From a phage, in NCBI GenBank assembly GCA_024790105.1, contig GCA_024790105.1_3053.1: 64,000 nt of DNA, one strand, 5' to 3'. The stretch's first letter is position 1. The number at the start of each line of letters is the position of its first letter. The notes under the pieces are model-generated. The model saw only the letters and a program-made list of their open reading frames with translations. It made no database searches and was not told the DNA's origin. The position numbers were made by a program, and so were the translations under genes. Positions 17,709 through 58,189 of this stretch are shown in pieces.

Positions 17709-17955
17709 AAAGTTCAACTACCTCTTCAGTTTCAGCTTCAAACACATCACGATTATCTTTATGATACAAAGCTAATAGACGATTAAACATCTTACCATCA
17801 ACGCCAAGTTCATCTTTAGCACGAATTCGAATATCTTTAATCAGTTCATTATAACCGGAAATTTTCAGTTTATGATCAGATGCTTCTTTAATAAATTTAG
17901 CCAAGTCTTCGCCATGGATAGCTTCATCAAATTCAACCATTTCTTTTTTAGCCAT
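17686..17955 (-). CDS. dsbA: double-stranded DNA-binding protein DsbA
   Basis: 89 aa; position and length match T4 dsbA. Confidence 0.8.
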   Translation of the reverse strand: MAKKEMVEFDEAIHGEDLAKFIKEASDHKLKISGYNELIKDIRIRAKDELGVDGKMFNRLLALYHKDNRDVFEAETEEVVELYDTVFSK

Positions 17956-28862: not shown

Positions 28863-28893
28863 TTTTGAATAAATACCCTTAAAAGGAGGGTCT

Positions 28894-29550
28894 ATGACAG
28901 CACCTAGAATATCATTTTCGCCCTCTGGTATTCTGTTTGGTGTTCTAGATCGCTTGTTCAAAGATAACGCTACCGGGAAGGTTCTTGCTTCCCGGGTAGC
29001 TGTCGTAATTCTTTTATTTATGATGGCGATTGTTTGGTATAGGGGAGATAGTTTCTTTGAGTACTATAAGCAATCAAAGTATGAAACATACAGTGAAATT
29101 ATTGAAAAGGAAAGAAATGCACGCTTTGAATCTGTCGCCCTGGAACAACTCCAGATAGTTCATATATCATCTGAGGCAGACTTTAGTGCGGTGTATTCTT
29201 TCCGCCCTAAAAACTTAAACTATTTTGTTGATATTATAGCATATGAAGGAAAATTACCTTCAACAATAAGCGAAAAATCACTTGGAGGATATCCTGTTGA
29301 TAAAACTATGGATGAATATACAGTTCATTTAAATGGACGTCATTATTATTCCAACTCAAAATTTGCTTTTTTACCAACTAAAAAGCCTACTCCCGAAATA
29401 AACTACATGTACAGTTGTCCATATTTCAATTTGGATAATATCTATGCTGGAACAATAACCATGTACTGGTATAGAAATGATCATATAAGTAATGACCGCC
29501 TTGAATCAATATGTTCTCAGGCGGCCAGAATATTAGGAAGGGCTAAATAA
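28894..29550 (+). CDS. t: holin
   Basis: 218 aa; MTAPRISFSPSGILFGVLDRLFKDNATGKVLASRVAVVILLF... recognised as T4 holin T with single N-terminal TM. Confidence 0.9.
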   Translation: MTAPRISFSPSGILFGVLDRLFKDNATGKVLASRVAVVILLFMMAIVWYRGDSFFEYYKQSKYETYSEIIEKERNARFESVALEQLQIVHISSEADFSAVYSFRPKNLNYFVDIIAYEGKLPSTISEKSLGGYPVDKTMDEYTVHLNGRHYYSNSKFAFLPTKKPTPEINYMYSCPYFNLDNIYAGTITMYWYRNDHISNDRLESICSQAARILGRAK

Positions 29551-53853: not shown

Positions 53854-54066
53854 TCATTTTGAATGCTCTATAATTAATTTTAAGGCTTCTTCGCTGACAA
53901 AAATTTCATCAGGACCTTCTTCTACAACCCAATCAACCCAATCAACCGTACGAAGCTGATTAGATAAGAGCTCACATACGAGCTCTTTGTCATAATCTTT
54001 AAATAGCTGGTTAATACGTTTCTTGCGGGCTTTCTTAAGCTGGCGTTTATTTAAACGAGCCATCAA
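53854..54066 (-). CDS. hypothetical protein
   Basis: 70-aa ORF between soc and gene 56. Confidence 0.35.
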   Translation of the reverse strand: MMARLNKRQLKKARKKRINQLFKDYDKELVCELLSNQLRTVDWVDWVVEEGPDEIFVSEEALKLIIEHSK

Positions 54067-54581
54067 TAACCTCGGTCTTGACGTGCGAAATTTTCGGCAT
54101 TTTTCAGATAATAAAGTTTAAAGATTTCTTCAGCTGTAAGACCAAGACCCTGGAACATATTCAGAACGAAATGAAGAATATCAATCATTTCAAATTTAAT
54201 TTCTAATTGGTCTTGCGGAGACAGTTCATCGATACGACGATTTCGATATTCAGCATGTTGTGCTTTCCATGGCTTCCATACACTGCTAGCGGCTTTTTCG
54301 CCATTGCTCATACCACCAAGAGAAGTCAGAAGTTCGCGGAATTCATCATCAATATAGTCTTTCTGATTGCGCAGCCAATCAACAACTTCACCTGCGGTAG
54401 CCAAATCATCAGGATGACGGTTATATTCAGGTTTATCTTTAGCTAAACGAATCTGCAGAGATTTCTGCATGTCAAGCATTACCTGCAGCGGGTCTTTTTC
54501 ATCACCGAGAATATCCCAATATTCATTTTGAGCTTTATCAGCGCCTTCGATCAGTTGACTACATTCGTTAAAGTAAGCCAT
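54063..54581 (-). CDS. 56: dCTPase/dUTPase gp56 (MazG-like)
   Basis: about 172 aa from MAYFNECSQLIEG; position and sequence match T4 gp56. Confidence 0.85.
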   Translation of the reverse strand: MAYFNECSQLIEGADKAQNEYWDILGDEKDPLQVMLDMQKSLQIRLAKDKPEYNRHPDDLATAGEVVDWLRNQKDYIDDEFRELLTSLGGMSNGEKAASSVWKPWKAQHAEYRNRRIDELSPQDQLEIKFEMIDILHFVLNMFQGLGLTAEEIFKLYYLKNAENFARQDRGY

Positions 54582-54641
54582 TATTTTTCCTTTCAATTCA
54601 TCAATAAGTTAAATAATTATATCATTTGAGTATGTAAGCAA

Positions 54642-55981
<1,340 letters not shown>

Positions 55982-56071
55982 TATATCATCCTCAGCAATT
56001 TATTTTATAATACCATAACAAGCTGAGAAAGTAAACAAATTTATGATAAATATTAATTTAAAGGAGGACAT

Positions 56072-56272
56072 ATGGTACAAAAATTAATGGCACTTGTTAA
56101 TGCCATCAAAGGTAATAAAAAGCGTATAGCTTTTACTATTTCTGCTATGATAGGAATTTTACTTTGGAATTTTGTTTTATCGCCAGTTGCTATTGCTCAT
56201 GGCGTTAGTATTCCAGTAGTTACTCTTGATACATTCGTAGATTTAGCATTTGCTTTAGTTGGGTTAATTTAA
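56072..56272 (+). CDS. small membrane protein (two predicted TM helices)
   Basis: 66 aa; strong RBS AAAGGAGG 5 nt upstream; near-consensus late promoter GATAAATA at 56046-56053; converges on gene 61 3' end. Confidence 0.45.
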   Translation: MVQKLMALVNAIKGNKKRIAFTISAMIGILLWNFVLSPVAIAHGVSIPVVTLDTFVDLAFALVGLI

Positions 56273-57297
56273 ATCTTAGCATATTTAGATAACCGCATTT
56301 TAGCCATTAACCCCTGGGCAATATTATTTTTCATATATTCCATAATTTGTTCAGGGGTTGCACCTTCCTTTCTAATCATATCATTAACATCTTTTGATTT
56401 CCAGGGAGATTTATCCCAAAACATAACCCTTTCTCCTGCATCAACTAATTTAGTCATTCGTTTAATAGTGTCAGGGTGACGAGGTTCATTATCTAAGACC
56501 CACACTCGTCTATCTTTAAATGGAACAACTTCTAGGTCTAATTGACCACCCGTAATAGCTATACCATTTTCAATAAAAAGTGAATCTATAGGTCCTTCTA
56601 GAACATATACATCACCATCTTTAACTCGTTCGACTCCATAGATTTTTGTTGCCTCAGGATAAGCTTTGATGGTGATATATTTTTGAGGAGCATCTTTCTT
56701 TAATGCACGTCCTTGAAAAGACTCAGCTTTTCCATTAGCATTATAAATTGGAATAACAAGACGAGGCTCAGAAATTTCCTTTTTATATGTTCCCGGTACT
56801 ATGCTATTAACCAATTTAGGCCATTCGGTTGTAAACCAAAGATATTTCCATTTATCCTTTGGAATACAACGAGCTTTTACATATTTTATAATTGGATGGT
56901 CTTCCGCCAGTTTATCTAATCTAACACATGACGGAAGAGATTTAATTATTTTCTTCTCAGGTTGTTTAGGAAGTTCTTTAGGTTTTTCTACTGGACGACT
57001 TTTACCTTTTTCTTTTCTTATTTCAAAGATATACTCACGATATAAATCAGGTTCAAACTCCTTTAAATATATTCCGATTGGTGCATGATAGTTACAGTTA
57101 TAACAATGAATATTTCCTTCATTATTATCACCATAATACCATCCACGGGCTTTATTTTGGTCGGTTTTTGAATCTCCACACACTGGGCATCTAAACCGTA
57201 ATTTAAAAGTTGAACTATTATTTACTTGTGTGAATTTAGGTAAATGAGCTAATGCACGGTATGCAAACTCATTATCAATCCAAGGTATTGATGACAT
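56269..57297 (-). CDS. 61: DNA primase gp61
   Basis: 342 aa; N-terminal zinc ribbon CPVCGDS...CYNC and TOPRIM region; recognised as T4 gp61. Confidence 0.9.
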   Translation of the reverse strand: MSSIPWIDNEFAYRALAHLPKFTQVNNSSTFKLRFRCPVCGDSKTDQNKARGWYYGDNNEGNIHCYNCNYHAPIGIYLKEFEPDLYREYIFEIRKEKGKSRPVEKPKELPKQPEKKIIKSLPSCVRLDKLAEDHPIIKYVKARCIPKDKWKYLWFTTEWPKLVNSIVPGTYKKEISEPRLVIPIYNANGKAESFQGRALKKDAPQKYITIKAYPEATKIYGVERVKDGDVYVLEGPIDSLFIENGIAITGGQLDLEVVPFKDRRVWVLDNEPRHPDTIKRMTKLVDAGERVMFWDKSPWKSKDVNDMIRKEGATPEQIMEYMKNNIAQGLMAKMRLSKYAKI

Positions 57298-57834: not shown

Positions 57835-58128
57835 TTACTCACCTACCACTTCAGCGATGATATTTTTATTATTAAAGTTTTTATCGCAATACAGAACATA
57901 ATTATACTGCATTACACCACCAGACTTAAGCTGTTTTTGCACTTCAGCTTTCATTTCAGGACGATCACGCTTAACGATATTCATAATATCTGCTTCAATT
58001 TGAGTTTCAACCTCAGTCTGATCCGCAGTCATAGACCATTCGCACAAATCTTTATCATAACCTGCCATAGCAGGCTGAGCAGCACAAGAAGCCAAAGCAA
58101 AAATTGTAGCAAAGATAAATTTTTTCAT
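57835..58128 (-). CDS. sp: Spackle periplasmic protein
   Basis: 97 aa from MKKFIFATIFALASCAAQPAMA (signal peptide); recognised as T4 Sp. Confidence 0.8.
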   Translation of the reverse strand: MKKFIFATIFALASCAAQPAMAGYDKDLCEWSMTADQTEVETQIEADIMNIVKRDRPEMKAEVQKQLKSGGVMQYNYVLYCDKNFNNKNIIAEVVGE

Positions 58129-58189
58129 GATTAATCTCCTCAGTAGTTTATGTTTATATAGTATCTCAATTTCCAACAAAAGTAAACAG

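Follow-up and report, generated by a model that had tools for sequence, protein, structure and literature searches.

The window considered here is a stretch of phage DNA of 64,000 nucleotides, and the features at the locus of interest are collected in Table 1. The early genes of the minus strand are arranged in the order 56, dam, a nuclease-like ORF, 61, 61.1, 61.2, and sp. Between the nuclease-like ORF and gene 61 a small ORF is found on the plus strand, which begins with an ATG at 56072 and ends, after 66 codons, with a TAA at 56270-56272. Its neighbors encode the primase, the nuclease-like protein, Dam, and the dCTPase, and no lysis genes adjoin it. The 3' end of gene 61 is formed by the palindrome ATTTAAAT, and the two convergent genes therefore overlap by 4 nt that hold both stop codons. 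The DNA is that of a T2/T4-like Tequatrovirus; over the 1 kb around the small ORF, it shares 99.2% identity with Shigella phage SP21535 and 97.6% with T2. An earlier reading of this DNA, made from the sequence alone, had described an ORF of 66 aa at this position with a stop codon overlapping the 3' end of the primase gene; the ORF is present and the 4-nt overlap was confirmed.

Table 1. Features at the small-ORF locus and predicted segments of the encoded protein (positions in the window).
Feature	Position	Strand	Basis or remark
Gene 56 (dCTPase)	54063..54596	minus	early
dam	54642..55421	minus	early
Nuclease-like ORF, 186 aa	55421..55981	minus	early; directly upstream of dam
T4-early-type promoter (GTTTAC, 17 nt, TG-n-TATTAT) of the nuclease-dam unit	56007..56036	minus	consensus scan only
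Late-type box GATAAATA	56045-56052	+	sequence
Shine-Dalgarno (SD) sequence AAAGGAGG	56060-56067	+	4 nt between SD and ATG
Small ORF, CDS, 66 aa and stop	56072..56272	+	ORF list
Codons 1-18, basic (net +5), amphipathic, predicted cytoplasmic	56072..56125	+	charge and hydrophobic-moment calculation
Terminator-like hairpin (56084-56109) and U-run	56074..56109	minus	inside codons 5-13 of the small ORF
Codons 19-42, one robust predicted TM helix with W32, N33, P38, and A40	56126..56197	+	insertion energy, AlphaFold, alignment
Codons 43-66, predicted periplasmic turn (G44, P48, V50) and acidic amphipathic C-terminal helix	56198..56269	+	
Overlap of the convergent stops of the small ORF and gene 61, 4 nt	56269..56272	.	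inside palindrome ATTTAAAT
Gene 61 (primase)	56269..57297	minus	

Comparison of its copies showed the small ORF to be protein-coding and under purifying selection. At the local composition, 66 consecutive sense codons are expected with a probability of ~0.011, and when the local sequence was shuffled 5000 times, an ATG-initiated ORF of at least 60 aa arose in only 67 cases. Pairwise dN/dS values among six Tequatrovirus copies were 0.11-0.30, with one near-identical pair at 0.62. The third codon position accounts for 11 of the 21 variable sites in these copies, and the replacements are all conservative (I/V, A/T, N/S, N/D, and V/A). The nucleotide identities at codon positions 1, 2, and 3 were determined to be 0.52, 0.82, and 0.35 relative to RB69 and 0.48, 0.85, and 0.40 relative to VR7. 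In these alignments, the order of position 2 > position 1 > position 3 is the pattern typical of a coding frame whose silent sites are saturated. In nine diverged lineages the frame is uninterrupted, and residues W32, N33, P38, G44, P48, and V50 are invariant, and A40 nearly so, in a 12-sequence alignment that extends down to 20% identity. The overlap with gene 61 is just 4 nt, and therefore selection on the opposite strand cannot account for this pattern of conservation. Frameshifted copies were observed in T4_ev240 (L020, ~1193-1205) and ECCR664 (L021, ~1195-1205). These are single-base changes in or beside A-runs in the KGNKK(R/K) codons, and either sequencing errors or true inactivation may account for them. 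In T4_ev240, dam is missing at the locus.

The small ORF is a member of an already catalogued, uncharacterized family that is annotated in hundreds of relatives. Residues 2-66 match PHROG 2024 (phrog_2024) with E = 8.1e-31, and the annotation of this group is "unknown function". Using tblastn, the protein was found in 693 phage records, including T4 (94-95% identity), T2, T6, RB69 (54%), and VR7 (48%), and the exact protein of the window is present on 52 contigs. The orthologues RB69ORF029w, RB32ORF030w, VR7ORF033w, and bas37_0144 are, like the small ORF, on the plus strand and tail-to-tail with gene 61. Proteins of this orthologue group are 61-67 aa in length, their genes have the ATAAATA box and the SD in common with the small ORF, and no essential difference was found. 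Two subtypes make up the family. The type-A orthologues, which include those of T4, RB69, and VR7, are 48-100% identical to the small ORF. The type-B copies, from JS10, the sampled Klebsiella phage, Pectobacterium phage PM2, Kosakonia phage 305, and Edwardsiella phage PEi26, are ~20-25% identical to it and yet belong to the same PHROG; the type-B and VR7 copies match phrog_2024 at 1e-15 to 1e-26. VR7 carries one type-A and one type-B copy in tandem, and the second is without annotation. This VR7 paralogue is located between ORF033w and gene 61 (L005, 2701..2904). The sole copies in JS10 (L014, 1501..1701) and PEi26 (L018, 1486..1671) are also unannotated.

The small ORF was shown to be kept in about as many of the genomes compared as gp61 of at least 60% identity. 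A copy with at least 80% identity is present in 503 records, versus 502 records with a gp61 of at least 95% identity; a VR7-type query matches ~949 records, versus ~953 with a gp61 of at least 60% identity, the latter comparison being approximate and made at a lax E-value. In every genus examined the small ORF is tail-to-tail with gene 61, a position seen in Tequatro-, Mosig-, Gapriver-, Dhaka-, Mosuguk-, and Kanagawavirus and in Klebsiella phages. The other flank varies and is occupied by gene 56, dam, a nuclease, or a homing endonuclease. The same overlap of stop codons with gene 61 is found in RB69, the Klebsiella phage, Kosakonia 305, JS10, and Bas37. The phages compared from outside the Tevenvirinae lack the small ORF: in RB49, 14 nt separate gene 56 from gene 61, and in a Pseudotevenvirus, Serratia phage 92A1, and Acinetobacter phage Ac42, gene 61 is followed by genes on the same strand.

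A profile search of 1.84 billion representative proteins returned 6 matches. A broader profile returned 114 matches, all of 41-73 aa and all unnamed or "hypothetical" apart from the stray labels "Holin" and "DNA packaging ATPase", and neither fusions nor Pfam domains were found among them; those of their contigs that are long have the size of T4 (~165-175 kb). No relatives beyond the family itself were found in Pfam, NCBIfam, PADLOC, a PDB sequence search, or a Foldseek search against BFVD. The single match to an outside protein in these family, defense, and structure libraries, to NqrE (E = 0.025), is insignificant. The copy in U115 is labeled "putative transmembrane protein", and most recent records use "hypothetical protein". 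In the T4 RefSeq record (NC_000866), the 310 bp between dam (17625) and gene 61 (17935) are an empty gap; the T4 copy of the small ORF is at 17738..17938 of that genome (L003, 3239..3439), with no RefSeq annotation. Literature searches with the ORF names, accession numbers, and PHROG identifier returned nothing, and nothing on T4 was found in the Ribo-seq and small-protein literature.

The strong ribosome binding site and the near-consensus late promoter motif of the sequence-only reading were both located upstream of the ATG. The late-promoter consensus, TATAAATA, occupies positions -13 to -6. The box of the small ORF, GATAAATA, has a G at -13 and matches the consensus at the other seven of the eight positions. 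A T4-type late promoter has its box about one helical turn upstream of the start site and is without a -35 element. ATAAATA was found to be invariant at 13-22 nt ahead of the ATG in nine lineages, with different flanking sequences. T4, T2, the window, and PM2 carry a G directly before it, the Klebsiella phage and Kosakonia 305 a T, VR7 and PEi26 a C, and RB69, JS10, and some Tequatroviruses an A. At the position of the SD, AAAGGAGG in the window, GGAGG or GGAG is kept in all nine lineages. Among 50 late sites of T4, 32 are perfect and 9 have an A at -13, and G is not among the common natural variants at this position that are named in the review of Geiduschek and Kassavetis (PMC2988020). In relatives of T4, position -13 is poorly conserved (Nolan et al., PMC1524935), and the site ahead of the small ORF is not among the RB69 late promoters listed from the HMM scan in that study.

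ATAAATA is depleted in the window, with 18 copies on both strands versus 39.2 ± 5.5 expected, and the count was exceeded in 100 of 100 shuffles. The depletion is consistent with selection against stray late promoters, and the copy 19 nt upstream of the SD-preceded ATG of the small ORF is therefore not there by chance. Eight of the 18 copies are positioned 18-31 nt before SD-preceded ATG ORFs, a range that includes the 19-nt spacing of the small ORF. Those of the genes behind these copies to which we assign an identity are holin t, gene 36, soc, I-TevI, and GIY-YIG/HNH endonuclease (seg) genes. The box of holin t, AATAAATA, is located at 28868-28875, has an A at -13, and is 18 nt from the ATG at 28894; it presumably works as a late promoter, and the base at which it departs from the consensus is also the one that differs in the box of the small ORF. 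T4 lacks the equivalent of 55505-56044 (540 bp), a natural deletion whose junction coincides with the first base of GATAAATA, so the sequence upstream of -13 is not needed, as expected of a promoter class without a -35 element.

The orientation of the small ORF is that of a late gene. The early and middle RNAs of T4 are all of opposite polarity to the late (clockwise) strand (PMC2988020). The small ORF is on the clockwise strand, opposite genes 56, dam, 61, and 41, and the sequence-only reading was thus correct in placing it antisense to the early unit. Differential RNA-seq of T4 has given 150 transcription start sites, 22 of which are antisense (bioRxiv 10.1101/2024.04.04.588121). For the small ORF, the start site is predicted at ~56058-56061. 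Taken from these signals, late, gp55-dependent transcription of the small ORF appears to be well supported.

On the opposite strand, the minus-strand hairpin at 56084-56109 has a calculated stability of -12.4 kcal/mol (z = -4.3) and is followed by UUUUUGU; the plus strand does not form a stable structure here. This hairpin probably terminates the transcript of gene 61, and with a terminator inside the small ORF the 3' UTR of gene 61 would be antisense to nearly the whole ORF. The hairpin is found in Tequatroviruses only, and RB69 and VR7 are without it. No canonical plus-strand terminator was found after the small ORF before 60204, so the late transcript may run antisense into gene 61, and this possible run-on leaves an RNA-level role as a secondary possibility. 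An imperfect plus-strand hairpin (z = -2.8) is located at 56308-56360, inside the 3' end of gene 61, and recurs in Kosakonia, PM2, RB69, and VR7. It was considered as a terminator for the late transcript and rejected, since RNAalifold did not recover it and no covariation was found across nine lineages; 66.7% of the cells were paired versus 66.6% in shuffles. Without covariation, it is probably a by-product of the conserved coding sequence for gp61.

The T4 record X01416 has a promoter annotated at the place equivalent to that of the early-type promoter in Table 1. This promoter is back-to-back with the late box at a distance of 9 nt, and the two could compete as infection proceeds. The nuclease-like ORF that follows it is PD-(D/E)XK-like (phrog_8706), and its matches to known families are weak (DpnII in Pfam, E = 0.0046; type II restriction endonuclease in PADLOC, E = 9e-5). 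The ORF is full length in T2-type phages, and T4 retains its last 28 codons, frameshifted (L003, 3129-3211). With this remnant and the missing 540 bp, the 310-bp gap between dam and 61 in T4 is made up of the deletion scar of a nuclease gene, a late promoter, and the unannotated but conserved 66-codon gene. The remnant of a GATC-type nuclease beside Dam could represent a former phage restriction-modification-like pair.

The protein encoded by the small ORF is predicted to have a single membrane span. Residues ~19-42, with a rough insertion energy of +0.4 kcal/mol, are the only segment that can be assigned to the membrane with confidence by these predictions. The sequence-only reading had counted two TM helices, and the second of these is marginal and not conserved: the C-terminal 18-19 residues contain D53 and D57, their rough insertion cost is +5 to +10 kcal/mol, and the type-B C-terminal segment is more polar still and less hydrophobic than that of the window copy. 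In some relatives the membrane helix itself is marginally hydrophobic (+2 to +3.6 kcal/mol), and the type-B helix contains an Asp. AlphaFold places helices at residues 2-14, 16-42, and 52-63 with a pLDDT of 72.6. For RB69ORF029w, TMHMM gave one span, at 21-41, and SignalP found no signal peptide (PMC1524935 supplement). The charge of the protein is at the N-terminus and the C-terminus (...LAFALVGLI) is hydrophobic. By the positive-inside rule we infer an N-in/C-out topology. The periplasmic turn and the outer half of the helix hold the invariant residues, which suggests that the protein most likely contacts a second envelope protein on the periplasmic side of the membrane.

The dispensability of the gene was assessed from a published transposon screen (HIDEN-SEQ). 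There, bas37_0144 occupies 91945..92145 on the plus strand of Bas37 (201 nt, with a 4-nt overlap with the primase gene), and it is taken here as the orthologue by length, strand, and position (bioRxiv 10.1101/2025.11.20.689424). Of its 24 TA sites, 20 had received insertions, and the gene was classified as non-essential on E. coli K-12; in the same screen the primase gene of Bas37 was "intermediate" and the dCTPase gene was essential. The log2 fold changes for bas37_0144 in two host comparisons were +0.33 and +0.20 (q = 1), and the conditionally essential genes of Bas37 that the authors list for uropathogenic isolates do not include it. The T4 annotation used there has no gene between dam and 61 and thus no gene-level T4 score for the small ORF. 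The orthologue was thereby shown to be dispensable on E. coli K-12. Near-universal retention is a poor fit to the lack of a detectable phenotype, and yet this combination fits many accessory genes of T4.

We conclude that the small ORF most likely encodes a late-made small inner-membrane protein of essentially all T-even phages. It is a genuine accessory gene of the Tevenvirinae, dispensable in the laboratory, whose product is probably a late, single-pass inner-membrane protein with a partner in the envelope. The gene would be transcribed only late in infection, by gp55-RNA polymerase from GATAAATA, to give an mRNA with a leader of ~13 nt and a strong SD. The 66-aa product would insert in the inner membrane as a single-pass protein with its basic N-terminus in the cytoplasm, one helix (~19-42) spanning the membrane, and a tail of ~24 residues facing the periplasm. 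The face formed by W32, N33, P38, A40, G44, P48, and V50 would bind another envelope protein, and we would guess that this partner functions in a late envelope process that is not essential in the laboratory. The candidate processes are the timing or inhibition of lysis (holin T, antiholin RI, or the spanin) and the late exclusion of an incoming phage, and a role in lysis or exclusion is a guess by analogy. The proposal in the sequence-only reading of a lysis regulator or superinfection-exclusion factor was likewise an analogy, and no relationship in sequence or fold to a holin, an antiholin, Imm, or Sp was found. No homology that would support any of the proposed functions was detected in Pfam, PHROG, NCBIfam, PADLOC, PDB, or Foldseek/BFVD. 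In that reading, the real plus-strand gene, the late box, and the membrane protein have stood, the two helices have not, and the function is not supported. More specifically, the product may be an unrecognized late envelope factor whose motif W-N-x4-P-x-A-x3-G-x3-P-x-V binds T, RI, the spanin, or the incoming injection apparatus and thereby sets lysis timing, lysis inhibition, or late exclusion, with the mRNA perhaps acting as an antisense brake on gene 61; this fuller version is tentative and, on balance, doubtful.

Other explanations were weighed against a late accessory membrane protein. It is scarcely credible that the ORF is not a gene and is open by chance within DNA conserved for the 3' UTR and terminator of gene 61 and for the dam promoter. 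The terminator-like hairpin and the early-type promoter do lie inside or beside it, and it is missing from the annotation of T4 RefSeq and of some T2, JS10, and PEi26 records, but dN/dS values far under 1, a coding-type pattern of codon positions, a frame open in nine lineages with saturated silent sites, a conserved SD and start codon, and the existence of a paralogue are left unexplained, and as far as sequence analysis reaches this explanation is refuted. If instead the late convergent transcript were the active agent, pairing with the 3' UTR of gene 61 to lower the primase late in infection with the peptide secondary, the 4-nt overlap of the stops, the tail-to-tail arrangement in every genus, and the absence of a canonical plus-strand terminator before 60204 would fit well, as would the likely gene 61 terminator at 56074-56109, which makes the mRNA of gene 61 complementary to codons 5-66. 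Several sites in T4 are also transcribed on both strands at different times (PMC2988020). A mechanism at the level of RNA does not explain purifying selection on the amino acids, residues that are invariant across proteins of 20% identity, the conservation of a strong SD, or the presence of a protein paralogue in tandem; the minus-strand hairpin is specific to Tequatroviruses, gene 61 of RB49 manages without the small ORF, and we consider such a mechanism quite unlikely.

The remaining explanations accept a membrane-directed protein and differ in what it does. Neutralization of a membrane-associated immunity or abortive-infection system that is lacking in laboratory K-12 would explain why a gene non-essential on K-12 is retained almost universally, and the two divergent subtypes and the tandem pair in VR7 suggest diversification; according to the report of the screen, many non-essential T4 genes of unknown function turn out to be anti-defense genes (bioRxiv 10.1101/2025.11.20.689424). 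Such genes are usually early and typically patchy in distribution, whereas the small ORF appears to be late, fixed in position, and nearly universal, it has no match in PADLOC or another family collection, and the Bas37 orthologue is not listed as conditionally essential on uropathogenic isolates in that preprint. An anti-defense function is thus unlikely. Cleavage of a Sec signal (residues 1-42) after A40-I-A42 could free an acidic amphipathic peptide of 24 residues. The basic N-region, the hydrophobic core, P38 at -5, and the AxA before H43 are compatible with such a precursor, type-A relatives retain AxA or LVA ahead of H/N-G, and the invariant residues are clustered around the putative cleavage point. 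A core of ~19-24 residues in a "signal" of 42 is nevertheless more typical of a signal anchor, the SignalP result for RB69ORF029w was negative (PMC1524935 supplement), and the type-B and PM2 proteins are without a good -3/-1 pair, which makes a secreted peptide very unlikely. We regard a holin- or pinholin-like lysis effector as highly improbable. The protein is small, with a late promoter and a membrane helix, and the copy in OE5505 (UniProt A0A482MZV5) is labeled "Holin", a label for which no support was found. It has no match to a holin in Pfam or NCBIfam (E ≤ 1) or in PHROG and no charged hydrophilic C-terminal tail, it is not beside endolysin or spanin genes in a lysis cassette, and holin t is already present in the window (28894). 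The dispensability of bas37_0144 argues against a role as the sole holin; endolysin gene e of T4 is essential in the same screen (bioRxiv 10.1101/2025.11.20.689424).

The importance of the late accessory membrane protein favored here is mild and derives from its omission from the reference and its near-universal retention only; otherwise, it adds one to the roughly 130 genes of T4 that have no known function. T4 serves as the reference phage of the group, and since its RefSeq annotation omits the small ORF, screens based on that annotation, such as transposon gene tables for T4, miss it. A late membrane protein that nearly every T-even phage keeps and can do without in the laboratory may reasonably be considered for a part in lysis control, exclusion, or host-specific functions.

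The predicted protein can be compared with the known small envelope proteins of phages. The class II holins and pinholin S21-68 are similar to it in length (~70 aa) and in a weakly hydrophobic first helix, but they have two true spans, a charged cytoplasmic C-terminal tail, and a place in a lysis cassette, none of which is found for the small ORF. Imm (Imm_superinfect) and Sp are, like the product of the orthologue bas37_0144, small and non-essential, and both are envelope proteins of T-even phages. Their genes are early and on the minus strand, whereas the small ORF is on the plus strand behind a late box, and, to our knowledge, the exclusion proteins of T4 are early and not late. Imm crosses the membrane twice and Sp is secreted into the periplasm, in contrast to the one predicted span of the small ORF, which has no match to Imm_superinfect in Pfam; sp is located at 57835..58179, 1.6 kb away. 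Holin T is the product of a late gene whose box, AATAAATA, deviates at -13 as does that of the small ORF, and its N-in/C-out topology with a single span resembles the topology predicted here. Holin T, at 218 aa, has a large domain in the periplasm and is needed for lysis, whereas the tail of the small-ORF protein is 24 residues and its orthologue is non-essential, and the two have no sequence similarity. Antiholin RI differs in having a periplasmic domain of ~70 residues that binds T, and family searches detected no homology to it (no match at E ≤ 1). RI otherwise resembles the predicted small-ORF protein: it is small and non-essential in the laboratory, has a single membrane segment of weak hydrophobicity near its N-terminus, and has its C-terminus in the periplasm.
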